Assembly: GCF_018977255.1 (NCBI RefSeq)
Contig: NW_024704742.1
Location: 3,784,001-3,848,000 of the forward strand
DNA length: 64,000 bases
Reading direction: 5' to 3'
From: Callorhinchus milii
Taxonomy: Eukaryota
Made by a program: the position numbers and the translations under genes. The notes beneath the pieces were generated by a model. The model was not told the DNA's origin. It worked only from the letters and a program-made list of their open reading frames with translations, and ran no database searches. Of this stretch, positions 21,001-64,000 are shown piece by piece (position 1 is the stretch's first letter; each line of letters starts with the position of its first letter).

Positions 21001-24000
21001 TTGATATCGCTTCTTATCACATGGTCGAGACGTCTCAAATGGCTTCACAGGATATAGTGTAAAGTGGATTGACAGCCAGTTTTCCCAAAGCGATGTCTCA
21101 CAAACAGCCACAGAGCGAGTGACTAATTTTATTTGGGGGATAGTTGGCCAGGACACAAGGAGAAACTTGTCTTTTTAAATAATGCCATAGGAGTGTTAGC
21201 ACCCACCTGAATAGGCAAATGAGACCTCTATTTATCTCATACAAAAGATGGTGCCTCCTACAATGCAAAACATCTTCAGCACTGCATCATAGCGTCAGCT
21301 TAAGACTATGATTCCAAGTTTGCTTTAGAAAGCAAGTCTATTTACATATACATTGTTTATTAACAATCCAAGCCCATGCCTTGCCCTTGATACGCCCACA
21401 AATATACAGTCAATTCACTTTACAGTGTGTTCTGTGAAGCGCTTTGGGACGTCCTCCTGACGTGAAAAGCGCTATATCAAATGCAAGGATTATTATTATT
21501 ATTATTATTAAGTCCTAATGTAGGGTTTGGAACCCACAAGCTTCTGACTCAGAGGTGAGAGTGAGCCAGGCTGACACACACTGTTAGAGAAGGAGGGATG
21601 AGCAAGTCCGACTCAGACCTTTTCTCAAAACTCGTAACGCATGTTGTTCAGAGAGTACGCTGCTTGGTGGCCGAACAAAGAACTTAGGAAACCTTTCGCA
21701 AATGAGGCAGGTGGAACTTTAGTGAAAGACAACTCTGGGTCGAAAATTCTGGGCTGCCCAATGGGGTAGTTGGTCCTGCTGGGCTGTATCACTTGTAAAT
21801 TGTAGTTGAAATAAATCTAATTTCTGCCGAGAGTATAAGAAGGTGCAAAGGTGCTTACATTTTCTCCACTAGACATAACCTTGGGTTTCAAACCCAAAGA
21901 CTGGCGAGTGATGACCAATGTTCTTTCTGAGGAATCACTGATAGAACCCAACATTAAATCCTTCCTCCGTATGCACGACAGACAGCAGAGGCAGAGGCAC
22001 GGGATGCTTTTAGCAAGAGCTCTCCTGTAGAGACAAAATTAATATAGGAATAAAGCACAGATCATTTGGTGAGCTAGTACAGTCAGATATATTATTTTAT
22101 AACTGAAACTCCCATGAGAGAAGCTCATTTATACATTCATCACATATAAGGTTGAGTATACAGGAGGTAGTCAGAACAGTTTTGAATATATCATATTGTT
22201 TCTCTGTGGAGTGTTATATGTAGAACACTCTGCCGTTACAATAAGGGATGCTGCATTGAGTAATTCCCTCCAATGAAAACATCCCCCACAGCTTCACTCA
22301 ACGTTATTCATAACAATAATAATCCTTGCATTTGACAATCCTCATCGGATCATATCACAGAGTTTTATTCTTCTTATTAATAATAATAATTAATAATAAT
22401 AATAGCCATGTGATCTCCCTATGGTCGATGTTGATGTGCTGAAATCAGGCAAATTTATATTTGATACCCGAGAAATCTCTTCGCTTAGCTCCCGTTTGTG
22501 ACTGCATTTGAGTTCAGTCTTGTCAGGCTGAGTTGCGAGGGTGGGGTGAAGCGGATCAGTTTCAGTGCATAGCCTTGTTCGGTTCACAACATACAACAAC
22601 AACAACTTGCCATTATATTAGCACCCTTCACACAGAGTAGCGTCCTAGACCGCTTATTGGGTCCGAGTGTTGGGTGGGGAATTGGGTGTTTTCGGCATCT
22701 TGACTCATAAATACAGTCAATTCACTTTCCAGTGATAAAATCTGAAAATGCATTTTTAAGTAAAAGCTCAAAGGTATTAGGAGCTCTTTATTCAAGTTTC
22801 TTTTCCATTCATTTTCTATCCTGTGATTCTACCCAATCAAATCTTTCTACCCATTTATTCCGCAGTAATCAATAACCCGAATAAAACACTTAACTCAATT
22901 ACTTTCATTTTTCTAACATTCATCCTCCATTTGAAAAGGGGAAGTACTTTTGTATAAATTTATAATAATAATAATCCTTGCATTCGATATAGCATCTCAT
23001 CGCGTCTTTAAGACATCTCAAAGGGCTTCACGGAATATACTGTAAAGTGAATTGACTGTATATTTCGTGGGCGAAAGCAGCCACAAAATTTGATTTTCAT
23101 TGGCTGAAGATGACCTTTGAAAGTTATGTTTTTTTCACTTAAGTTAAAGCCCGAACACTGGAGATGAACACTATCATGTATTGTACAGTATTTGGTGTAG
23201 CCATGTCAATCCATAACATTTGAATAGGCATCCAACACAAACAGAGGCAAACTGGTCATCTTCTTTGATACCAGAATATAAGAAGAACCAAGACAGGGGA
23301 AATTAAAAACAAAAGTACCCTTGGGCAAAGGAGAGTTCAATGAATACACTTACTTGTCCTTGACCACGGAATGATAAACAGTGCGAAAGATGAACTTGAC
23401 TGAAAAGCTCCAAAGTCTACGCTCTCTTGATTTCAAAGAATATCGCAAAACCTTTTTACTTGTGTCTACATGTCGCAAATTCATATCCACCCAATCACTG
23501 AGTTGAAATGCTCCGTGAATTCACAAGGTTACTAATTTCACTTAAAAGGGTAATGACAAAGCATCAGTACGCACGCACACATGCGGAGAACAGAGTTTCC
23601 CCTCCAAAGAGTGAACATCTGTCTCAGGAATGTGTTGCACAAAGCACCTACAGCACGATGGGAATCCGGTACTCACTCACCTGTAGTTGGGGTGAATTAT
23701 TGCGTAGATGACGGGATTGTAGATGGCAGAAGCTTTTGCTAATACGGCAGGAACGGTTTTCGAATAGGGAGTCAGGATATCGCCATGCCTGAGCAAAGGA
23801 CCAAAAAGTGTGAATAAGATATAAATGAAGACAGTTGTCAGTTCAAAAATGAAGCAAGCTGTGAGGATCAAACCGAGATGATGAGGGTGGACAAGGAAGG
23901 CCAACACATGCAAATTTATTTAGGTAAATTCAGAGTTAATGGGATAAAACTCTGCTGGCTGTCAGCACAAATGAGGAATTGAACACATGTAGTTCAAAGC

Positions 24001-27000
24001 TAATTTTGATAAGATTAATTAAAAATGTGTCAGCATTGACTGTTCCCAGATTTTGGTATCTCATTTTAATGAAATCACATTGAACTCTCTCTTCCAGCAC
24101 TGACGTCAACGCAGAGCCAGGATGAAATCTGAAATCTGAAGCCAGCAGTTGTGACTACCGCATCAAAGACAAATAAAGAGGCGATGGATAAAACTCGTGC
24201 GCTTTCCCAAGAGTTTTCATTTATATCCAGCTGTCTGCTGATCTAATACTTTATCTTGTGAATTATTGAATGGGGTAACTGAGATTTCAGTTGTTTTCAA
24301 TCACTGTACATGAGTCTGACATCGATTGATCTAAAGATTCAGCAGATCATAGTCACCCTTCAAACAGCATAAGGCATCCCATTCTCCTGCCAACCTTATT
24401 TTAACTAAATGAAATTCCTGTTCGATACCAAACACTGGTTGTTTTTTTTTTGCACCGGTTTGTGAGTGACCAAAGCCACATCAGGCAGGAAACCTTGCAG
24501 ATCTTAGAGAGCGAGAGAGGTGGCATTCATGGCAGAAAGAATAGTATAATGTAAAAGACATGAATAACAAATAATTTCATTGCCCACTGTTCAGTTACGC
24601 TTTAGAGACTTGTGTGACAGTGTACTGGTTGGGGTTTTCATCGCTGCTCTCCACACTGCCACAAGTTCCCGCCCACGGCTATGGGATCAGGGAGAGAAGA
24701 GGTGTCTGGACTTAAGTCATATTTTCTAGGGGTCCTCACAACCAGACGCTAGGAGGGTCGATGGAGGTGGAACTAATTCAGTGGAGCGGAAACCTTTACT
24801 AAGGTCACAGCTTTTAGGTCTATGGTATCTTGGTTGTAGGATTCACAGTACGTTCTGCAGTCTATTCTAATCACCTCACTCTATCTCCTGTGGTTTGAAT
24901 CTCTCTTCGTTCCAGTCTGTACTTGTTTTTCGATATTTTTTCAGAGAAAGCTCATATTAGTGATAAGTGTAGGAAGTGGGTTAAATGTCAGCGATCATTC
25001 AATTAGCCAGCTTTCTACTCTACTGTATGCAGGCGAGATGGGGGGTGGGGGAGAGGGGGGGGTGGGTGGAGGAATGAACCGATTGGCGTCAGACTTCTGT
25101 TACCATCTTTAATCTGTATCTCAACAACGTCACTGTTTTTTCAACCAGAAGAAAGCAAACGACAAAAAACAAGAGAGCGTGCACAGCGATTGGTGATTCA
25201 TATCAGATGCCAAACTATAATGATATATAATAATCCTATTAAATGTAAAATAGATATTATATATCTTTGTTACATCAAATGCAAGGATAATTATATGTGT
25301 TATTATATAATCCTTGCATTTTATATAGACATGTCAAAGCGCTTCACAGAATATACTGCAAAGTGGATTGGCTGTATGTTTTGTGGGCGAAATGCAGTAG
25401 TCAATTGTGTACAGCAGTGTCCCACAGACTGTCATGGATTGAGGGACCTAATTATTATTATTTGAAGGGACTATTACTCCCAGAAAGCGATCTGCTAATC
25501 AACTAACAACCGGGTTCCTACATACAGCTAGGTAAACAGAGGCATGTGGAGTAAGGAGACCTGCCTAATGTTTCGCCCTCCCCGGGAATTGAATCCGGGT
25601 CCTCTTGCTTGCGAGGCGAGTGCTCTAACCAATACGCCACAGGATTCCACTATAATCTCAATGATGGCAGGTCAGAAAAAGACTTACTAACAGTCTCATA
25701 GGTATAGGTATGTGAGCTCAGTTGAAACCTGGAAAAAATAGTCACTGCACGTGATACTATGGATTGTAAGTGCTTTGACATTCCAGGTGCAATAAGTAAT
25801 TATTTCGTCGAGGTAAGAGCCAAGCGAGAGAACAAATTCTTTCTCATTGAGTCTGTCCGCAGAGAAATAGTAGAGAATCTTGGTGAGACTCCATCAAATT
25901 GCCCCAGGACTGCCTTTGTTAAATCCATTACTTATGAATTAATACCTTTGGGCTGCATTTTGGACATGGAGTACTGAATAGAGTTCTCACACTGCAACAT
26001 AAGCGCTTAAAGGCAATGCAGAGGAGAGCAACAAGGAGGGTCCCTCGTGCAAGAGGAATGAACCACGAGCAACGATTAGACAACTTCATTTCCAAACTTG
26101 ATTTAGCACAGGATGAGGTGTATATGAAGTAGAGTTACTTACCCTGCCCATCCAACTAATGTCACACATGCATAAGGGAACCACGAGAGCACAAACACGA
26201 CAATCGCCACAAATGCAATTTTGGCCAATTTCCATTCAACCTTTACTGTTTGTTGATGGGCTTCATACGCTTTTCTTCTGCAGCCTCCCATCTTCTCAAT
26301 ATCCCTAAGAGCAAAATATTAGCTCAATTCGACAAGTCCAACTTCAAAAAACAAACTTCAAGAAAAATAATACAGAGAATAATGATGGAATAATGGCTAA
26401 ATACAGCAATTGATTTGTTACATCTTAAGGCAGATAACTAGGCATTAGTTTGCTACACAGTTGTATACAGTGTACACATCAAATACTGTCCAAAAGAGAT
26501 CTAAATCTGATTTATGGGAGAAAATCTCAATTTTCATGTGTTGTTTTAAGGCAGAACTGTCTTTATATCACCTTAATACACCATTCCTCCATCATTCATG
26601 CTTTGGACATCTCTAGCCTTGTTTTTTCTAATCCTCATTGGATTTCCTAGTTCCATAAGCTCCAAACTCTGCAGCCCATATCCTTTCCCACACCAGACTT
26701 CACATGCCTGTCACAACCATCATCGCTGTATTCCACCGGCTCCACATTATATCAGATAAAACAACTAGTCATTCATCTCATGGCGATTTGTGGGACATTG
26801 TTGTGCAAATTGGCTGCCTATAAATACACAGTCACTACGCTTTGGAGAAAAAACTGTGCGTCATGTATTGGAGAAAGAAATATATCAAAAGCAAGGAATG
26901 GTATTTATTTCCCAGTGGATTGACTTCAAAATCCTCATTCTGGTTTTCTAATGCCTTAATAATGCCTGGCATCTTTCACAGTGGTTGTTAGTTACATAAC

Positions 27001-30000
27001 TGGGAACTTGCACTCATTGATTGTGAACCACAGAGTTGCGCCATCCTCTCGACTGACTAACTAACAACCAGGTTCCTACTTATTGCTCGGCAAACAAAGG
27101 TGTGTGGAGTGAGAAACCTTGCCTAAGGTTTTGCCCTGCCGGGAATCCAAACCCGGGCTCTCTCGCTTGCTATGGGACTCCACGTGATCCGGGTAGTTTG
27201 TTGTTCCCATCAGGGCTGTACTGCTAGGATTGATGTTGATATTAGTCTGGTCTGGTTTGAGAATGCGTACTTTGTGAATAAATCACCAAATGCAATAAAT
27301 AGCTCCACTGGTTAGAATGTGCTATACCGTCATCTTCATCAAACATATAAAAAGGAGGAATTACACAACAGTGTAAAATAAACTCTGAATAATGTCTGAA
27401 CCTTTAGCTTATCTCTGTCTCGATCACTCACTGGTGTGAGCAAACCAAAAGGTCAGTGTTCAATCACATTGGCCTTAACATTAACCATAATACTACGGTG
27501 TCTTCCATACCTGGTGGTGTGTTTTACAGCCCTGAACATACAGATGTAACAGTAGGAAATTACAATCAGTGGCACGAAGAACACAAAGCAGCAGAGCATC
27601 AAAGTGTAGCTCCTGTTAGATGGAGAATTTGTCACGTAATCCCAGGTGCAGGAAGTCATCAGACCTTCAGGATATAGGAACCTGTGCCAAATATACAATG
27701 GGAGTAAAATGTTTTAAAATAGGAGATGGTGGGATCGTACAAACATTCTACACTTGTGTAAAAATATTCATAGAAAATGTTATTACGCAAATTTCACACC
27801 GTCTGCAGCACTTGGACTTTGAAGGCTAATCCAGGGATTGTTTTTGTTTCAGGCGTCTTTCATTCAGTTGTGCAAGCGCTTTGATTATACTGTGCAGCTG
27901 AAGAAAAAACATTTTAAAGTGTACATTACTTCCTTCTGAGACTACAAAGCTGCTGAAAATACCATCCAAAGTTCAGCAAAAACAAACCAAGCTACAGTTT
28001 CTGTCATTCAGTTTGTTTTTCAACACATAATGACATGTAACAGACTTAAACAAAAACTGAATAGATACACTTACTCCAACCAAGGAGTGGAGGAAGACTC
28101 CATGCAAGCGAATATAGCCAAACCAGAATGATGACCTTCAGTGTATTCTTCTTTGTCGTCGTCGAGCTTATTGATTGTAATGGCTTTGTTATGACCCAAT
28201 AGCGATCAATAGAGATTGCCATTAAAGTAATCATAGATGTAATGCCAAACAGTGCTCCGCAGAAGGCATATAGTTTACAACCTGCAGCAAAACATCAACA
28301 TCAAATATGCCAGTTAAAATATGTTATTAATCTTGAAAACAATATGGGGCGGGGGAGAGGAATTTCCATTCTTTTGAAAAATTAGTCCATCAGGGGTTCA
28401 TCAACCCAGTTATAGAGGGAGGGACACAGATCATTCTTATATAATCCAAATACAAATGAAGGTTACAGTCGCCTGATGTAACAGAGAAGTGCCTTGCTTT
28501 GGCCCACAATATCAGTGCTCAACTGATCGCCAGGTAACTTTGAAATACATTTACATTGATATAGAGTCTCCCCTTTGTGAGGTTGCATTGCTAGGTATGT
28601 GACCTTGGAACTAGGACGAGGAGACCCAGTATACTTCTCACCGAGAAAGACAACCATTCTGTGCACTTGATGTTCAGTCCCTGGTTTAAGAGTCTACTTC
28701 CTTCATTGTGATTAGTACATGTCTTGCTGCTCTCTGTGCTTTCCTTCTCATGCCACTGTAACTGGGCGAGTGTTACCTTCATTTGGGAGGGTTCATTCGG
28801 AACACCGACAACAACAACTTGCATATAAAAAGCGCCCTTCATGCAGGAGTCTTGGAGCGCTTAACACTGGCGGAGCCTAACGCCGAGCCGTTGATAGGGA
28901 GGAGGTGACCATCAGCACGAGGAAGGTCTTCGGTCGTGATCCAAAAGAGGGGAAGTAGGGGGGCAAGGCGTAGGGATTGAAGGAGGGAGTCCTACAGCTT
29001 CAGAGGGGCAAGGGGCGACGCTACTGACACGTAGTCTCGCCCTTTCTCCCTACCATTGGGTATCTTGGCAATGGGTATTTTAATCTGCCGCAGTGCAGAA
29101 TAACGTGTCTTCACATGAAGCTTCAGGCTGCCTGGCAAAGGTTTTGAATTGTGAAAGAAGTGCTGGGTATGTACTTAAATGTTCAAAAAATAAAAACTTG
29201 TTGATTCAGGTTTGCAACCAGTTTAGTGGAAACTTGTGTCAACTTCTGCTGCAGATTGCTTAATCTGCCGCTGTGCAAAATAACGTGTATTCACATGAAG
29301 CTTCAGGATACCTGGCAAAGGTTTTGAAATGTGAAAGAAGTGATGGCCTTAGTAGATTATGAAGATTATGGTCAGAGGTATGACATTTCCCTTTGTTCAC
29401 ATGCCCGGGTCCTTGTGATCTTGGAGGAGGGGAGGTGAAGTCAGATGAAGACTAAATAACAACAACAAGATTTCATTTATAGAGCGCCTTTCACGTCGGG
29501 AGGACGTCCCAAGGCGTTGGACAGTTGGGTCGGGACCCGAGCATTGGGGGGAAATGGTCAGGGGGAGGGAAGGGAGGGAGCGAGGAGGGGGTAGAGAGTC
29601 GAGAGGGGAGCTGAAGGTACAGTCGATGAGAAAGGTCTTGAGACCGGCCTTGAAGGAGGAAAGGGAGGAAGCGGCGAAGGCACTGGGGGATGGAGTTCCA
29701 GAGCCTCGGGGCTGAGAGGCTGAAGGCCCGGCCACCGATGGTAGGGCGGTTAGGACGGGGGATGTGGAGCAGACCGGAGCCAGAGGAACGGAGGGTACGG
29801 GCAGGTAAGTAGGGGGAGCTCAGCACTGGGTGCTTTCTCCAGGAGCCAGAGTCTACCAGCTGCAAAATCATCAGTTTCAAGATCCTCCCTCTTGTATTTA
29901 AATCCCTTCACGCCCTGCCACCTCTCCGACCTTCTCTCTCTCCTTACACCCACTGCCCGCTGCCTCCGCTCGACTGGCTCCGGCCTCCTCCTTATCCCTG

Positions 30001-33000: not shown

Positions 33001-35601
33001 AATCTATTTCAATATTTCTGAATTATAGGAAGTAGCTGTCTTCCTCCTCAAATGTTTTCACTATTTAGCAATAGGAACGACTGATAGTTACTGATCTCTA
33101 TTTAGCCACTATCTTTTGTGAATAATTATTAGCGATAGAGGATTGTTTTTATTTCCTCGTGCAGCTTTCCAACGATAACATCTTACTTGAGCTTAAATTG
33201 TACTTTACTTAAAATTGTACGACGACGAGCTGACAAGATATCAGACCTTTTAAAAATAGTTAACTATTTTCCTGCATGAGTACTGTACATAATGATACTG
33301 CAGTATTGCATTTGCTATCGTGCTTTATCAGGTTGAAAAGCATTTGATAGAGTTTACTGTAGTGACTGGGGAATTGTTGGTGAAGGTGGTAACCAACAGC
33401 CATGAAGTGAGTAACCAGTTTTATTGGGGAGATTGTTGGTCAGGCAATTGGGAGAAACTTGCCTTTTCGAACAGACAGACAGGACCTTGATTTAATCATC
33501 CCAGACTGTCAGCTCAAAGTTTTGCATGGGCTTGAAGCCACAATCTTTAGGGGCGAGAGAACGATCAACTGAACTCGGCTGACACCTACATACACAATAT
33601 GCCAAGATTAGTTACAAGATACTTGGAGGAACAGTTCTGAAAGCAGGAAGGGGAAAAACAATGACAATTAGCACCACACTATGCTTTCCTCCCACAACCT
33701 GGGTTTGAACCCATTTGATAAACTTTTACAATCTTCTATGTGGTTACGCTGACACCCGAGAACACCACATTATCACCATTTTGCAAGTCATGAGTGAGGA
33801 GACACCTTTGATAATGTGCAACTTGACCCAATTGTACGAAGCAAATGCTGAAAATTTGTGTGGGCTGAACATTCAGAGATTAAATCTAGTTTGCATACCT
33901 TTCTTTTCATGTCATATCTACAAGTTAATATGCAATTTAAAACCCAATAACTCGTACCATTGGCAGGTAATGCTCAAGTGTCGAATCTTTCAAAAACAAA
34001 TTAGGCAGATTTCTATTAGGAAATAGTAATAATAATAATCCTTGCATTTGATGTAGCGCTTCACAGAATATACTGTAAAGGGAATTGACTGTACATTTTG
34101 TGAGTTAAGCGCAGCAGTGTTCCACAAACAGTCGTGGATTGAGTGACCAAAATATTATTATCATTTTATTGTGAAGGGATTATTACCCCTGAAAAAGCGA
34201 TCCGTCGATCGACTAACAATCGGGTTCTCACTTACTGCTATGTAAACAGAGGCGTGTGGAGTAAGGAAACTTGCCCAATGTTTCAACCAGCAGGGAACCG
34301 AACCTAGGTTTCTCGCTTGCGAGGCGACTGATTTACAGGATTCTACATACTAATAAAATAATATCTTGGGATACAGTATATAATTTGGGACATGACATGC
34401 GCATGCAGCTGCCAGGAGGGTGAAAGGCCAACTGAATGGACTTTGGTCGGCTTTCGTCCAGAAATTCTTATGTTCAATAGGGAAGAGCTTACACTATTGG
34501 ACAAGGGTAATTCAGGGAATATAATTTACTTGGATTTTCTGAGAAAGGCATCAAAGGATATGGNAAAAAAAACTGGGAAATCGAATGCAAAGATTTGGAA
34601 TTTAATTTGTCAAGTTTGTATACGACAAACAGTAGGTTCTGGACTACATTGTGAGACGTTGCTTCAGACCCTTTATTGTTCATGTATCATACAACCAGAT
34701 TCAACCATATGGAAACACTGGGGTGAAATGTTGGTGTTTCCTAACTCATCAAAGACAATGCTGTGGTTCACGTGCAATGGAATGTGATCCAATTTATTTC
34801 CAATTCCGATTCGGCATTTGCAACAAAACTGAACCTGTGTCAATCATTCCTTCTCCCCTCTGTTGGTCTGTTGGTCACTCTGCAGTAAGGTTTCAACCTG
34901 AACCCAGTGTTTACTGATCTTTGTGAAACCGGCTGTTGCTGGGGTTGGACTGGCTGGTGTTTGACATCTGGGCCTGTCCTCCTTTCTTTGCTACAATTCA
35001 CTCAAAAGACACCACAAGTGGCAGAGAGGCAAAACCTTCTGGTGCCTTGCAAGTAAAAACAAAATTCCCATCTCACCCCTGTCACTGTGAAGTTCTTTAA
35101 GACGTTTCAATGACATGATAAAGCACTATATCAAATGCAAGAATTATTATTATTATTATTATCTGATCCACTTATTATCACGCCATGAAGTATGGTAAAT
35201 TTCCCCCTAGACTGTCCCTCACTATCAAACTGAGTTTCCTGTTGTGTCTCTTACTTTTACCACTATCAGTACTGAATCCAAAAGTCAGCTTTTCTATAGC
35301 TTGGATCAAACCAGTCCTTCCACTGTCTTGTGAAACTCTAGACATTTGCTTTGAGCGATGCAAGACATTTCCGATAAATGCACCAAAATGTTTAAACTGA
35401 AGGATGTTAAAGGTGATTTTTCGTAAATTTGGGTAAGAAGCCAAGCACTTTGGAAATAATGTGTTACCTGTAAACTGCATAAAGTACCAGGAGATTCCCC
35501 AAGACTCCAATGGTGCCAATCACAATAATGCAGCTGCCAAAGATATAGTGAATACAGTCAGGAACATTGACCGTGTCAAAGGTCCGGTGGTGGGAATCCA
35601 T
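14593..35601 (-). CDS. opn4x: Melanopsin, Xenopus-like (opn4x), multi-exon; 1-nt frameshift in the assembled sequence
   Basis: Exons 35601-35468, 30914-30781, 28281-28075, 27681-27511, 26304-26143, 23788-23681, 22024-21859, 15006-14593, all GT-AG. Motifs [66 protein letters not shown]. Sum is 1496 nt, one short of 499 codons. Position next to hpgds/smarcad1 fits the x orthologue rather than opn4m. Confidence 0.95.
15409..15716 (-). mobile_element. SINE, related subfamily with an extra central block
   Basis: Shares head and tail with the young SINE and adds a gcgatcc..aatcgactaacaacc..gttc block, also seen near 16300, 25500, 27060 and 34200. Confidence 0.8.
16172..16510 (+). mobile_element. 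SINE, extra-block subfamily
   Basis: Degenerate head (gggttcaattccc), central block and (tta)n tail. Confidence 0.8.
17152..17555 (+). mobile_element. DeuSINE-like element (AmnSINE1/SacSINE1-related), near full length
   Basis: Different tRNA-like head (ggctcatttggtaggactctcacctctgagtcagagagttgtgggttcaagcccc); central ttaaagatcccatgg...gtcctgg segment recalled from DeuSINEs; L2-type tail. Confidence 0.7.
18054..18110. repeat. Perfect 20-bp inverted repeat with 17-nt spacer
   Basis: actcctgataactcatcact (18054-18073) and agtgatgagttatcaggagt (18091-18110). Confidence 0.97.
20966..21577 (-). mobile_element. DeuSINE-like copy interrupted by a 5'-truncated young SINE (21394-21510, +)
   Basis: Reverse complement of the 17152 family, split at aagt (21316-21319 and 21510-21513). 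Confidence 0.7.
21859..22024 (-). CDS. opn4x: opn4x exon (helix 8 and proximal C-tail)
   Basis: [56 protein letters not shown]; 166 nt; ctctacag| and |gtaagc; phase 2 to 0. Confidence 0.9.
23681..23788 (-). CDS. opn4x: opn4x exon (TM7, retinal-binding Lys)
   Basis: [37 protein letters not shown]; Schiff-base Lys codon at 23734-23736; 108 nt; ctcag| and |gtgagt. Confidence 0.97.
25300..25650 (-). mobile_element. SINE, extra-block subfamily, near full length
   Basis: Tail at ~25300, head (tgctctaacc..acagga) at ~25645. Confidence 0.82.
25965..26105 (+). mobile_element. CR1 ORF2 fragment
   Basis: [22 protein letters not shown] (CR1 VQRRAT..SYEERL motif). Confidence 0.7.
26143..26304 (-). CDS. 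opn4x: opn4x exon (ICL3 and TM6)
   Basis: [55 protein letters not shown]; 162 nt; ctcttag| and |gtaagt; phase 2 to 2. Confidence 0.95.
27511..27681 (-). CDS. opn4x: opn4x exon (ECL2 and TM5); 171 nt, one base short
   Basis: SY(I)[54 protein letters not shown]; acceptor ggcacag|, donor ag|gtatgg. Flanking phases (1 and 2) require a length of 3n+1. Confidence 0.93.
28075..28281 (-). CDS. opn4x: opn4x exon (TM3-TM4, DRY motif)
   Basis: [69 protein letters not shown]; 207 nt; phase 1 to 1; donor a|gtaagt. Confidence 0.96.
29080..29346. repeat. 87-nt direct duplication, copies offset by 180 nt
   Basis: 29080-29166 and 29260-29346 differ at only a few positions. Confidence 0.93.
29455..29820 (-). 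mobile_element. L2 LINE 3' fragment
   Basis: [32 protein letters not shown]; 3' stem-loop and (TTG)n tail. Confidence 0.9.
29866..30240 (+). mobile_element. L2 LINE 3' fragment
   Basis: [43 protein letters not shown]. Confidence 0.88.
30781..30914 (-). CDS. opn4x: opn4x exon (ICL1 and TM2)
   Basis: [46 protein letters not shown]; 134 nt; ccgcag| and |gtgagc; phase 2 to 1. Confidence 0.96.
32035..32360 (+). mobile_element. Young tRNA-derived SINE, full length
   Basis: ggagtcctgtagctcagtggttagagcactcgctttgcaagcgag...gggacgtcctcccgacgtgaaaagcgct...(tta)n; TGC in the anticodon position. Confidence 0.95.
34027..34345 (-). mobile_element. SINE, extra-block subfamily
   Basis: Same structure as the 25300-25650 copy. 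Confidence 0.8.
34385..34560 (+). mobile_element. CR1 fragments (3' UTR and RT piece)
   Basis: ttcttatgttc tail followed by [13 protein letters not shown]; similar to ~12050-12150. Confidence 0.6.
35468..35601 (-). CDS. opn4x: opn4x first coding exon (N-terminus and TM1)
   Basis: [47 protein letters not shown] in acc-ATG-g context; acceptor tttgttgcag 9 nt upstream (exon starts 35610); donor ag|gtaac, phase 2. Confidence 0.92.
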
Positions 35602-39416: not shown

Positions 39417-41240
39417 ATAAATGTAATACTTGGATAACAACAGAAGTCCAAACAAACACAAAGTACGACATCTTCCGTTACAATTTTTCCCCTTTCTCCC
39501 GATAGAAAAAAACCCATTCTGTTTGCTTACGGTACATTCCTTCACCGCACACAGGTTGTGCGCACGTTTTTTTTTTTTGGACGCTCCCTTTAAAGCAGCC
39601 GGGAGAGTCACCCCCCTCCGTGTCCGCCACATCCCGAGGGCAACGTGCCGACTGGCCCAGACCTCGACCGGGCACGAAAGCCCTGAGAGGGACTGGAAGC
39701 TCCTTTCGTCGCCAGCCAGGCCGTGTCCTGATGGCTGTTGGTCAGGGTTGGTTGACGTAGCTGGCTGTCGCTGCAGGGTACCCCCTGACACCGGATAGGT
39801 GGTGCTGCACGCTCCAACTGTGTGGAACGTTTCGGGGCAGTTCTGCCAGACCCACCCTTCTTAGCACCGGGTACAGGTAGAAACCCAGCTCGTACCGGGG
39901 CTCCAGGCACAGCCTCAGGCGGCTACACACAAAGGTGGGCATGAGGATCAGGGCTATGTTAGGGACCCCTTTTCACCCCCCCCCCCCCCACCACCCCCCA
40001 CCTTTCCGGGGTTTTGTGCATCGTGTCCCTGTGCGGACACGATCCATCTTGGACCCCCAGATCAGGTGGAAGACCTCTCCGGTGACTGCAGTGGCTTTGT
40101 TCCTGGGCAAAGGCCAGACCCGGGCCACGTACAGTAACACCGAGACGGCCTCACACTTTATCACCTGGTGCCACATCACCAGTTTCTTCCTCACTTTGCC
40201 TGGATGCCCCTCCCAGCATTTTTGGCACCCCCCCCCTCCCCACCCCACCCCGGCAGCCCCGAACCAGATGCCGAGGACTTTGATGTAGTTCTGGCTTCAC
40301 CGCAAATGGTACGTGACTGTGTCCTCTCCGGTCTCCAAAATACACCCCTGAGACTTGCTCAAACCGGTCAAAAATGCCCAGCAGGCTCGAGAGCGATTTC
40401 TGGTCTGTGCAAAAGATGGTGACATCTTTCATATACAGGGAAGGCCTTGGCTTGTGTGCCGTGGCTGCCCGAGATGGCGACATCTCTGATGTTCTCTGAG
40501 GGCCTTGTGCAAAGGGTTCAATGGAGCAGACAAACAGGGTGAGAGACTAAGACAGTCCTTACATCCTTACTCTCGACCTGATGGGGAATGGCTCAGTCTC
40601 GTACCCGTTGACTGTAACTGCGCTACAGATGTCTGTGTAGAGCAGTCGGATCCACTTGGGTGTTCCCTCCCCCGAAGCCCATTTTGGAGAGTGCGTCATC
40701 CAGGTAGCTGTGAGTTACCCTGTCAAAGGCTTTCTCTTGATCAAGGCTTATCTGGCAGGCCTTCAACCCCCTGTCCTGTACGGAGGAGATGGTATCCATG
40801 AGCAGCGCAAGGCTATCCGAGATCCTTCCCCGGAACTGTGCGGGTCTGGTCTGGGAGCATTACCCGCCCAGAGATCACCTTTGCCAGGATCTTATAGTCC
40901 ACATTCAGGAGCGAGATCAGTCGCCAATTCTTTATCTCCTCCTTCTCCCCCTCTTGTTTGAACAGTGGGGAGAAGCTGCCTTTCCTCATAGACTCTGCCA
41001 TGGTCCCTGTTGTTGTTGTCGGCCTTCAGCAGGTCTGGGCCCATCACGTCCCACGGAGCCGAGCAGAGCTCCACCAGGAGGCCATCACCTCCGGGGTCTT
41101 ACCGGTCTGGAGGGCTTTGACAGCCCTGGTCGGCTCGTCAAGGAAGAGAGAGGGCTGTCGAAGTGCTCCCGGCTCTCCTCATCCAGCACCTGGATCCCGG
41201 GAAGCCGTGCTATCCTTGGGTTTTTCACAGTACAGGATAA

Positions 41241-45041: not shown

Positions 45042-48000
45042 GTAAGTAGCGCAGAGTGAAAAGGGCAACCACAACAACTTGCGTTTATGTACCCGCCCCT
45101 CAAGGAGGGTAGCGTCCCAGAGCACTCAACGCCGAGCCGGGGGGGGGGGTGGGGAGATGACCGTAAGCACAGGCGAACAGGAAGGTCTTCAGGCGCGAAG
45201 GACAGATAATTAAGGCGCATGAAACCTGACATCACCCAAGGTTGAAAGAATAGCAGAGTTACGAGAGAAATCAAAGTGGCTGCATAAACAACCCCACCCC
45301 CCACCCCCCACCACCAACAACAACCCCCCACGATTAGCTTAACGCCCCACACATAGCTTTCAAAGCCTGGGGAGACAAGTACCTTTAGGTCCTGGGAAAC
45401 AATGAGTTAAAGTGGCAGCATGATATCTGCCAAAGTCGGAAGTGTAGCATAAACTCAGTGGTGAGCTCCGCTTGAATTGAATCAGTCAACAGATCTCGTT
45501 CTGCAGCAGCCAATTCCAAACAATTTTTAAGTACAAAAACAATTCTGTTCAAAAGTTCTTGGTTGGTCACAGGACCACCTTAGGCTGGTTAATACTGGCC
45601 GGTATTCCAGTCACACTGACAGCTCTTCAGCCGCATTGAAAAAAATAACCGGCTTTGTCTCCGGTTGGCAGGGTATGGACTGGCCGAGCTCTGGGCTGGT
45701 AGCTTGCAGTAACTTGCAATTGGAAAGGATTTGAAGAGAGAGAGAAAACATTCAGTCTGACATGTGTGACAAATCCACATCATTGTTAAACAATTCTCTC
45801 TCTATTCAGATATGGAGAATTGATGATCTCCATTGGGTGAGATCTTACCTCATGTAACAATGGCTTATGAAGAGATTGAATTGAACTGACAGACTAATTT
45901 GGCCTTTTTGATTTGTGTTCCAGCTTTGACTTTCAGGCAAGTTCCGATCCTGGAGGTGGATGGAGTAGTTATCAACCAGAGCGCAGCTATTGCGAGATAC
46001 CTAGCGAGAGAAACAGGTAAAATACATCAAACAATTTGTTATTTGTTGGGTCCTCAACTTGCCCAAAAGCCAAAATTGTATCATGGTCTCAGCCTTAAAC
46101 CGATGTCTCAAAATTTAAGACTGTGCAAGATTTTGCATAATACTTAATTAAGGCAACGCTGGAAGAAGGATAGGCACAGGCACAATACGCTGAATGACCC
46201 CCATTGGTGCGGAAACGTTCTACGGTTCCAATATTAACTACTTTGGCAAGGAGTTACTGGAAGGACTCGTGGAACTACGACAATACAATGCAAAGTGGGA
46301 GGTAGAACACGATGCATGAAAGAACAGTGGTTGGTATGTAGAACAGAGTATGTTCCAAATGGGGCAACACTAGGAGGAGAAGATAAGCAGAGAGATCTGG
46401 GGGATGGAATGCAAGTTCATAGATCATTAAACAACAACAACAAGATTACACTTGTATAGCGCCATTCATGTCGCGAGGACGTCCCAAGGCGCTGGACAGT
46501 GTGCAGCATTTCAGACCTGAGCTGGGGGTCAGGGGTGGAGAAGGGAGGGGAGGGGAAGTGGGGTGGCATTCAAATCTAGTTTACAGATGAAGTGAAATCA
46601 GTAAGTCAATTGGGAAGCGAGCATTCATTGTAAGAGGACTGGAATTTAGAGTGGGCTTGTCAGTACTTCATTTGGAGTAACGTGTTGAGTTTTAGACTCC
46701 TAATCTTAGGAAGGATACACTGGGCTTGGAAGGTATCCAAAGATGGTTCACTGAACCCTTATCATATTATTACGAAGGCTCAAAGCACTCACAAGTTTTT
46801 GTTGAAAAGTTGGGTAGACTGTAAGTTGTGGAGGTGGAATTATGGTGAAAGGCTTGTGCACTGTCCTTAAACAATCTTCCAAGATCTAATAAATTGGTGG
46901 AACAGGCTTGATGGGCAGAATTACATCCTCCTGGTCCCAATTCTCGGTGTTCCAAGATGCTGATAAATGTTTTTGGTAAGCGTTTGGCCAGCTTGATGTG
47001 AAATTACAAGAGACCGATGCCAATCGATAAAAAAATAAATCTTTTCCTTGTAAAACTTAATATTTGCACTTACTAACATTTGTAGTCTTTGTAATAGTAA
47101 TTACACTAACATTGCACTAACAAATTGCAAATTGCACTACTACTACACTCACATTGTTTTTACCAAAGTTAGTGTTAATCAAATTCGTGCAATCATTTGT
47201 AGATGCTGTCCATGCATTACCAAAATATTTTACCCACACATATATACAGTATATAAAACTGTATATCTATTTTGCAGTAAGATTGATATACTGTTTCTTC
47301 ACTGATAGGCTTAGCGGGGAATACCAATTTGGAGCAAGCTCAAGTGGATGCCATTGCGGACACAATTAATGATTTCATGAATCTTTTCCCCTGGACAGAG
47401 AAGGACCAAACTTTGAAAGTAGGTTTGACGTTTAAATTCGTCATCTCGCACGACTGCTGTTGAGACAAAAGTGGCCAAAGTAACATTCACAATTATTTAC
47501 CTGTTAGAGGAGCAAAATGCTATCAAACAAAATCTCAGAGTAATAGATAAAGGTGCTTTAGTTCATTATGCCTTTAACCTTCCGTTGTGTCCTTACCCGA
47601 CCATTAGGCCCATCCTAACGTTATCTCATTATAAATACGCTTCACTAAGATGCTTTGTAAACTGAACGAATCATCACATTTTAAAGTAAATTTCCTCATG
47701 GAACGGGTTAAACGGACCCGTTGTATTCTACACTTGTACCCTTGTATTCTATTTACACCGTAGTTTTTATTTACCTTTATTGCTGCAAAAAGTTTGGGTT
47801 TAAATGTTTGCAGAGCTTAGTGAAAGGGTGTAGGAAGCTTTTGATATCACAAGTGGTGAAGGTGGAATAGCCAGCTGATACACGCTGTCAAGGCACGCAT
47901 GTAAAAATTGGCCACTGGTTCCAGAGTCAGGAACAAATCGCCTATAAAAGCATTCCCATTAACAGTTTATTGAGACGCAATCCACTCATGTTGCACACTG

Positions 48001-51000
48001 CTTGGTTGTCAGGAGTAAACAGTAAAGGAAATGCTATTTATATTGATCAATTCCGGAAAGGATGTGTTTTCAATAGGAACTCAACAATGATTTCCTCCCT
48101 TACAGCAAAAGATGATCGAAGACGTCTTCATCAACAACAGCAACTTGTACCTGGATGGGATAGAGAATTTATTGGGAGACAAAATGTGGTTCGTTGGCGA
48201 TTCGGTAGGTTGAGATTCATTTGATTTTAATTATGGGAATATTTTTCTTTTAAACGCAGGTAAGATGACTGAAAAATGTTGGTACACTAATCTTCTCATG
48301 TTAAATTTTGGCTGAAAAAGCACTCCATTCCCCAGGAATTCTAGTTGGGAAAAGCACCTTGGGTTTTCTTCCAGCAAAAGGTCTGATCCAAACACTAAAA
48401 ACCTCCAATTAACGAACAGTCAGTGGATTTGTTTTTAACATAAAATACTTAAACGTTTAAAATGACAAGCAAATAAATCACTCCATAATTTACCGGACCA
48501 TTTGCCAACTTACACAATATGAACCATGAAAGCATTGCTACATTTGTCTGTCAGATGTCATGTCAGCATATCTTTTAAAATGCAGTGCTTTGTACATTTA
48601 TTCTGGAGAGAAATTACTATTACTTGTTCAGCAAATCACTCACCTGTCTACCAGTACTATTGACAGGAGGAGCGCATCAATTTTTATGTTATATAACTCG
48701 TCTAATTCCACCGGTATAATCATACAGTAATACTGTCTACATTTTGCATTTGAGTTTAACTTTTAACTACTCGTTACCCAAATTTTAAATCATTATTCTT
48801 TCTCCAATCTGATCACCAATACAAGACAACTGTGTTATTATGTCTCTCCCCGAGGCTGTGATATAAATGAAGGGTGTAAAAATGGCTGACCTTTGGGTAG
48901 ACATGTCACTGCTGACATCGCTTCCTTCATGAACTCATAGTCTTGACATCTCTGATCTCACCACCAACAACAACAAAATTACGTTTGTAAAGCGCCTTTT
49001 ACGTCTGGAGGACGTCCCAAGAGTTACGGACCCGAGCTGGGGGTCGGGGTGTGGGAGGGTAGAGCGCAGGTGGGGGGAAGCAGGGAGGTCGAAAGCACGG
49101 TTGAAAAGGAGGGTCTTGAGGTGGGTCTTGAAGGTGACGAGGGAGGGGGTGAGACGGAGGGTCTGCGGGATGGAGTATCAAAGGGTGGATGCAGAATGTG
49201 GAAGGTCCGCCCACCGATAGTGGGGCGAGCGAGGGTGGGTACGTGAAGCAGGCCGGAGCCCACTGATCGGAGGGAGCGAACAGGGTGGTAGGGGGTTAGG
49301 AGGTCGGAGAGGTAGGGGGGAACAAGACCGCGGAGGGCTTTGAAGGTGAGGACCAGGATCTTGAACTGGATCCTCTGTGTGATGGATAACCATCACAGAC
49401 AAGGTCATTTTAGACCACTTCCTCATCTCCCTCCTACCCGTCGACAAAGCTTCTGCCCTCAACGATCACCTCTTCTCAACTTTCAATTCTCATGTACCCC
49501 TGAAAACCAGGTCCGTCTCCAAACCTACCCGCTACCCCTGGTACAACAGTCACCTCTGCTCCCTCAAATCCCCAAAGCAACTGCTCGAGTGCAGACGGCA
49601 CATGGTTCACCGTCAACTGTGGCTCAAGCATTTTCATTGCCAACCAACTTCGTTCACACCTCTCCCTCCACTCCCTACTCGAACCCCTCCAGTCTTTTTT
49701 TTTCCCAGCCCACAGCACAGAGACGGGGCTCGTTAAAGTAATAAATGATTTCCTTTCTCTCTGTGACCAGGGCTCCCTCTGCCCCTTCATCCTCCTGGAC
49801 CTCTCCGCCATGTTCCACCATGCCATCCTCCTCCACTACCTCTCCTCCCTCATACACCTTAGTGGGACTGCACTCGCATGGTTCGAGTACTACTTTACAA
49901 ACTGCCAACAACACATCTCGGCAAGTGTTTTTTTCCTCCCACCCCGCCCGGTCACCTGCAGGATACCCCAAGGCATCATCCTTGGCCCACTTCCTTTCCT
50001 CAGCTACATGCTCCCACTCAGCGATCTCATCTGCGGACGTGGGGTTAACTTCCATGTGTATGCGGATGATACTGAAATCTACTTCAACTCCTCCAGCTGC
50101 GACTCCCAGTCTGCTGATGTCCTGTCAGCTTGTTTGACGGACATCGAGGCCTGGATGAGCGCAAATTTCCTGTCGACAAGACGGAAACCATACTCTTTGG
50201 CTCCCATCAATGTCTTCTCTCCTGCAGGTCTGACCTCAACTTCCCCGGACTCTCCCTCAGACTCTCCAAATCCGTGCACAACTTAGGTGTCAGGTTCGAT
50301 CCTCAGTTTCCCGTTTTACCCTACATCCGTTTTCTGACCAGAACCACCTTTTTCCAGCTCCGCCACATTGCCCGGTTCCGTCTGTCCCTCACAACAAATG
50401 AAGCCGAAACCCTTGTCCAAGCCTTCGTCACTTCGCGGCTGGACTATTCCAAAGCCCTCCTCGCTGGTCTCCCCAGCTCCACCATCGCAAGACACAAATA
50501 GCCCAAAACTCCACAGGCCGGATACTCACCCACAGCAAATTCTTGTTTCCCCCATCACACCGGTCCTTGCCGGGCTCCAATCCCTCCGCCTGGCCCCCTC
50601 CCTCCCTCCTCACCTTCAAATCCCGCCTTACGACCTTCCTTTTTGATCGTGCATACAGTCACATCACCCCCTCCCTCTCCCCTTGGCTCGTTGTCAGACT
50701 CTGCCACTGTCGAGCTCTCGGGACACTGCCTCGCGTTAAGGGCGCTGTGTAAATGCAAGTTGTTGTTTGTTTGTCGCTGTTGTTGCTGATGAAGTCCCAT
50801 CAGCGGCGCCTCAGGCAACGACACGCAGGAAATGACATTAACGGCAACCAGACAACAGGGAAGTTGGAAGCCAGTCAGGCTAGGTGTACTGCTCTTCTGG
50901 TTGACACGGCTCCACAGTTGACCTGCTGCCTACTCGACTTGCTCTGAATAAATTTGTGTGCCACTGGGCTAGGGCCCCACCGTTGAACTGTCCCATATTT

Positions 51001-57369: not shown

Positions 57370-64000
<6,631 letters not shown>

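Follow-up and report, generated by a model that had tools for sequence, protein, structure and literature searches.

The opn4x gene that reads as broken in the stretch of Callorhinchus milii DNA analyzed here (hereafter the window, 64,000 nucleotides of contig NW_024704742.1) is almost certainly intact and expressed, and the one-base loss that interrupts its reading frame is an assembly artefact, a reading to which we give a probability of about 0.96; the artefact is demonstrated for every other readable sample, and for the sequenced animal itself we infer it. The lost base was shown to be the wobble nucleotide of the Ile162 codon, at which C and T segregate silently with a T on one side and CC on the other, and its loss is likely to have arisen when the consensus collapsed a heterozygous site at this codon.

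The in-frame translation of the affected exon (27681-27511, minus strand) matches a C. milii opn4x model with 100% identity across 95% of its length, the next-best matches lying at 77-90%, and the gene is, judged by its sequence, the already known melanopsin opn4x of this species. Its protein cluster has five members, namely two cloned cDNA proteins (AFU50497.1, long; AFU50498.1, short), two genome-derived models (A0A4W3ICZ5 and A0A4W3IVX5/XP_007900693.1), and one later predicted model (XP_042190799.1). In a midpoint-rooted tree of 26 chosen rows, the cDNA protein falls inside a 14-row opn4x clade with support 100/100, separate from the rows named melanopsin or melanopsin-A, and the same opn4x grouping of the C. 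milii protein, apart from opn4m, was reported by the authors of the cDNAs (PMC3522658). PF00001, the rhodopsin-family seven-transmembrane (TM) domain, is carried by the full-length model (P0001) and matched four of six exon pieces (E 1e-4 to 1e-16), two of which exceeded the curated cut-off. The residues K288, E164, C91 and C170 (disulphide), D115-R-Y, N294-P-x-x-Y298, and Y94 (Tyr113) are invariant in the alignment (A1), and every defining opn4x residue tested (the equivalents of K296, E181, the disulphide cysteines, DRY, NPxxY, and Tyr113) is present.

All exons lie on the minus strand. The first coding exon (35610-35468, ATG at 35601-35599) encodes TM1 and has I17 where the cDNAs have V17; it is followed by a 134-nt exon with TM2 (30914-30781) and by a 207-nt exon with TM3-TM4 (28281-28075), whose canonical donor, GGA/gtaagt, agrees with the consensus at 6/6 intron letters. 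Within the first six intron bases (28074-28069), the GT at 28070-28069 forms a weak +4 donor with 3/6 intron consensus letters. The next exon, 27681-27511, encodes extracellular loop 2 and TM5, and counts 171 nt in the window and 172 nt in the cDNA proteins and in three sequencing runs (X1, X4, and X5); the missing base belongs between 27672 and 27671. In the true frame, 27668-27666 encode Glu164, the E181 equivalent and putative counterion (PMC3522658). Further downstream come a 162-nt exon with TM6 (26304-26143), spliced to both neighbours in X5, and a 108-nt exon with TM7 (23788-23681), where Lys288, equivalent to the retinal-binding K296, lies at 23736-23734. Next comes exon 22024-21859, from which intron read-through to 21820 yields the tail of the 374-aa opn4xshort; the tail of the published 402-aa opn4xlong lies at 20447-20325, and the conserved last coding exon, 137 aa, of a 499-aa model at 15006-14596.

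As the window reads, joining the seven exons at their GT-AG ends gives GWSSYILKV and then a TGA (27661-27659) that is premature in the shifted frame only, for a product of 165 residues from the ATG at 35601. Re-splicing the window thus reproduced what a first-pass annotation had described (the donor, the exon one base short, the stop, and the truncated length) and equally its statement that all the other exons are open, the remaining six joined exons being open and differing from the cDNA proteins at I17V and V296I only. A second lesion was sought in the seven opn4x exons and none was found. Among 350 opsin-type proteins fetched, 269 have a recognisable motif, and five residues stand between W and EG in 267 of them, the other two having six (XP_042190799.1) and three (one further match); because of this constancy, the frameshift of the window relative to the opsin motif is, on this comparison, not a matter of chance.

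The missing base is found in the proteins derived from cloned transcripts. Indeed, AFU50497.1 and AFU50498.1 both read WSSYIPEG, that is, the canonical junction. The underlying cDNAs (JQ172799/JQ172800) were obtained by RACE and sequenced by Sanger, opn4x transcripts were detected in ten tissues, and opn4xlong gave light-evoked currents of -29+/-11 pA with 9-cis retinal in neuro-2a cells and none with all-trans retinal (PMC3522658). Over the first 361 residues, I17V, V296I, and the broken codon 162 are the sole differences between window and cDNAs; given the first two, the cDNAs represent another haplotype than the window and alone exclude only a fixed pseudogene. The two genome-derived models, A0A4W3ICZ5 and XP_007900693.1, carry an in-frame Ile162 and show no difference from the window across the remaining 360 residues compared, among them I17 and V296, so that DNA with the residue states of the window exists with an intact exon. 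Predicted models can be frame-corrected, in which case RefSeq models carry a low-quality label; the name of XP_007900693.1 is without it. As for XP_042190799.1 (opsin 4xb isoform X1, 499 aa), it is identical to the translation of the window through the +4 donor, WSKFLYPEG included, so that the DNA from which it was predicted is evidently one base short as well, and its residues 160-163 are probably wrong.

Independent samples carry the base as well. Fourteen listed runs contain part of the stretch, and four of them, from two studies (X1, X4, X5, and X6), were compared over 23100-28900; all are assembled contigs from which rare alleles are dropped, so that they show the presence of an allele and not its absence. 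X1 has an extra G behind 27669 (9.31/9.31 depth), X4 an extra A behind 27671 (10.3/10.3), and X5 an extra A in one contig (4.66/59.8, with about 18.6/59.8 of the depth at the site in contigs outside the output). On the coding strand, X1 therefore reads ATC CCT, and X4 and X5 read ATT CCT, both alleles translating as SYIPEG. For X6, no insertion is listed, and one contig (record 28) has nine unplaced letters, nine being expected with the base and eight without it, a count that assumes a join of cryptic donor 27787 to exon 27681. This same contig (27855-27787, minus strand; depth 3.19) appears to splice an intronic stretch from cryptic donor 27787 onto 27681, and is probably a minor or aberrant product. 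None of the listed runs is recorded as RNA; X5 and X6 contain spliced joints of downstream opn4x exons and, judged by these joints, behave as RNA. Neither the 28075-27681 joint nor the shifted +4 joint is among the run joints displayed, 104 further joints lying outside the display. In X5, the first letter of a spliced contig (depth 36.5) is precisely 27671, and an unspliced contig ends where a 31-letter word leaves the intron; in a 31-letter graph, these contig ends suggest that both alleles are present in X5. The deleted allele was sought in the run contigs and none was seen, in tables that list differences only, with rare alleles dropped and X5 depth partly undisplayed.

The leading explanation of the first-pass annotation, an error in the assembly consensus, is thus supported by the cDNA proteins and the run contigs, and the 172-nt exon that it had named as the mark of an artefact is what two cDNA proteins and the run contigs contain. 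Its more specific proposal, a homopolymer error in a CCC run, survives in part: the base does fall in a CCC run on the ATC CCT allele but in a TT run on the other, and the consensus error stands but probably not as a plain slip, the lost base being a segregating silent C/T site between T and CC.

The same runs document a high diversity of the region. Together, X1 and X4 reveal 27 single-copy substitution sites against the window in 5.8 kb (repeat row 25561 excluded), the window differing from X1 at 24 and from X4 at 13 of such sites over 23100-28900. The coding differences of the runs in this interval are V296I (23712, TM7 exon), with I in 4/4 runs and both cDNAs and V in the window and none of the four runs, and the silent changes at 28085 and 28175 in the TM3-TM4 exon. 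At 24441, X1 and X4 are each one base longer in a 10-base run, which may be a second assembly shortfall, as is probable, or a length polymorphism.

How a consensus could lose precisely this base is suggested by the string itself, which is what the ATC and ATT alleles share and matches neither of them. This is the signature of the "Alt1/Alt2" sites, at which a collapsed assembly corresponds to neither allele, and which made up ~5,000 of the ~7,000 error sites recorded in another assembly study, where 98% of error sites were indels or complex (PMC8445201). On this model, the sequenced animal would be heterozygous C/T at Ile162, one half of the reads would, compared with the shared string, appear to insert a C and the other half a T, and neither insertion would reach a majority, so that a column-vote consensus would drop the base or polishing would fail to restore it, as we simulated. 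The annotation pipeline would then have bypassed the false frameshift via the weak +4 donor, giving the WSKFLYPEG of XP_042190799.1, as its exact match to that translation suggests. By our own estimate, based on the 27 sites in 5.8 kb, a one-base loss placed at random would coincide with a polymorphic site in ~2% of cases. The available portions of PMC5632298 and PMC6053246 held nothing bearing on the collapse mechanism.

In the simulations, for which error rates were assumed, the outcome varied with the consensus method. When majority-vote polishing with noisy reads was started from a draft without the base, the base stayed missing in 12, 18, 16, and 20 of 20 heterozygous runs and in 0 to 8 of 20 homozygous ones; with accurate reads, it was recovered in 18 and 19 of 20. 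When the majority vote was started from a true allele, the base was lost in 0, 7, and 2 of 20 heterozygous runs under indel-only alignment and in 0/20 under ordinary alignment in all three settings; homozygous simulations from the true backbone created the loss in 0/20 in all 12 settings. A likelihood-based consensus chose the one-base-short template in 0/25 heterozygous runs under each of four error models. Given these mixed outcomes, heterozygosity can cause and preserve the loss of the base under some consensus methods only.

The best-surviving alternative, which we consider possible but clearly less likely than a collapsed heterozygous site, is that, in a homozygous animal, a homopolymer was simply under-called (CCC as CC, or TT as T) and the polymorphism is coincidental; the frameshift would then still be an artefact. 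The probable shortfall in the 10-base run at 24441 speaks for it, as do the retention of the error in up to 8/20 simulated homozygous drafts with deletion-rich reads and the two N bases of the window, 34564 and 53063, which are followed by A-runs of eight and four, respectively; that both border A-runs had already been pointed out, correctly, albeit with n=2 only. However, the runs concerned at Ile162 comprise only two to three bases, the loss hits precisely a site that segregates, an event of low chance probability by the above estimate, and the homozygous simulations never produced it from the true backbone.

That the sequenced animal has a genuine null allele of opn4x, one base short and rare in C. 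milii, appears very improbable. Such an allele would encode a four-TM fragment of 165 aa without Lys288, and its transcript would be a probable substrate of nonsense-mediated decay, its stop being followed by three or more junctions. The window itself reads this way, contigs cannot show the absence of a rare allele, and melanopsin loss has been reported in cartilaginous fishes (opn4x in the catshark, opn4 in the Greenland shark). Against this stand the two genome-derived models that have I17 and V296 in frame, the presence of the base in two cDNAs and 3/4 runs with the fourth compatible, the lack of any other lesion in the seven exons, and the coincidence of the loss with a silent SNP. The recent loss-of-function allele that had been envisaged for the locus thus finds no positive support. 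A fixed lesion or unitary pseudogene is rejected on the two cDNA proteins, the two genome-derived models, and the 3/4 runs with the base, as is pseudogene decay on the intactness of the seven exons and on the spliced contigs in X5 and X6.

Least credible of all is that the genome is correct and the gene rescued by splicing, either at the +4 donor (exon end 28071) or at a second AG at 27666-27665 (exon start 27664). Both restore the frame on the window, the former as WSKFLYPEG, as had been noted beforehand and as translation confirms, the latter at the cost of SYIPEG and hence of the E181 equivalent. XP_042190799.1 has the +4 reading, and, with an AG/GTRAGT consensus, a shifted donor is most likely to be found at a GT four bases downstream (PMC1779574). 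However, XP_042190799.1 is a predicted model, the sole one of 269 proteins with six residues in the motif, the +4 site is much poorer than the canonical donor in intron consensus letters, the cDNAs use the canonical junction, and either alternative site would shift the frame on alleles carrying the base; as a real splice site, the +4 donor is thus left without positive support. We further screened four AG in 27760-27640 and 14 GT/GC in 28110-28000; the long frame was kept at 27664, at 28071, and at a GC at 28110, and none of the sites had support. A missing G that would give I-L-E, as in sawfish and horn shark, also restores the frame and was rejected, as I-P-E is found in the cDNAs and the added base is C or T in the runs.

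The surroundings of the gene include a Helicase_C exon (59694-59927, minus strand) and a GST_N exon (45890-46144, plus strand), both detected with Pfam, which presumably belong to SMARCAD1 and HPGDS, genes known to lie near opn4x. LINE elements have left RVT_1 remnants at 40626-41025 (minus strand) and 49504-50283 (plus strand), and near-identical short repeats recur across the window, such as 21393-21510, which is 97-99% identical to four other places. An opn4x intron also contains an 87-nt direct duplication (29080-29166 and 29260-29346) with 92% identity.

The C-terminal tails of opn4x are of interest in their own right. The published opn4xlong tail (20447-20325, minus strand) has no AG directly upstream in the window and is partly repeat-like, overlapping a segment that weakly resembles a repeat copy at another place in the window (69% over 83 nt, E 0.002); the frame upstream of it may be akin to a CR1-type LINE. 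Exon 15006-14596 (minus strand) has a normal acceptor (ttag/GAG) and is conserved, being homologous to the tails of the horn shark (45% over 141 residues), the sawfish, and, weakly, the gar; among the five cluster members, it occurs in a predicted model only. A homolog search with the 137-aa tail retained 0/82 candidates at E<=0.001, and local BLAST matched it to the horn shark and gar tails. The opn4x form tested in cells may thus be one without the conserved tail exon.

From a comparative perspective, two elasmobranch proteins deserve mention. A full-length protein of the sawfish Pristis pectinata (XP_051897011.1, P0125) groups with C. milii opn4x with support 94/92 inside the opn4x clade (100/100), and this same group includes a protein of the horn shark Heterodontus francisci (XP_067893466.1, P0006), whose model is without a normal TM1. 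The retinal lysine is present in both, as is a Pro-to-Leu change just before the E181 equivalent. Although these are predicted models, they conflict with the reported loss of opn4x in the elasmobranch ancestor (PMC11979771), and point to separate, later losses instead. In a literature search on opn4x in elasmobranchs, the word opn4x appeared in none of the best 20 of 311 matches.

In itself, the frameshift is without biological weight, opn4x of C. milii being known, intact, and functional, and the value of the present analysis is that of a correction. A gene-loss survey relying on the sequence of the window might count opn4x among the pseudogenes of C. milii, and in XP_042190799.1 four residues of extracellular loop 2, immediately ahead of the putative counterion, are probably wrong. 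When a diploid assembly shows a single-base frameshift, we suggest a cheap check, namely to search for a SNP whose two alleles are identical to the bases on either side of it. Were the null allele true, it would catch at an early stage, polymorphic in a chimaera, the opn4x loss reported in some sharks, and would open this loss to study within one population in which the normal allele works. For specialists, the opn4x of sawfish and horn shark, together with the tail exon absent from the cell-tested isoform, may outweigh the frameshift. A literature search that covered few subscription papers listed no report of the frameshift and none that describes opn4x of C. milii as a pseudogene.

With regard to known systems, the closest comparison is with the published C. 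milii opn4x cDNAs, which represent the same gene and whose two tails both map in the window; these cDNAs are in frame, with a long form functional in neuro-2a cells, whereas the window is one base short in Ile162 (PMC3522658). XP_042190799.1 takes this loss as real and moves the donor, whereas the cDNAs and the runs indicate that the junction is canonical. As to the nature of the error, the Alt1/Alt2 cases resemble the window in that neither allele is matched, an indel results, and the reading frame is broken, although heterozygosity was established there from reads of the same isolate, whereas here the alleles are seen in other samples and the source is presumed to be heterozygous (PMC8445201). 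Finally, the absence of opn4x in the catshark (PMC11979771) and the pseudogenisation of opn4 in the Greenland shark (PMC12770505) are species-level losses, and are what a true null would resemble; unlike the genes lost in those sharks, opn4x of C. milii is expressed, intact, and functional.
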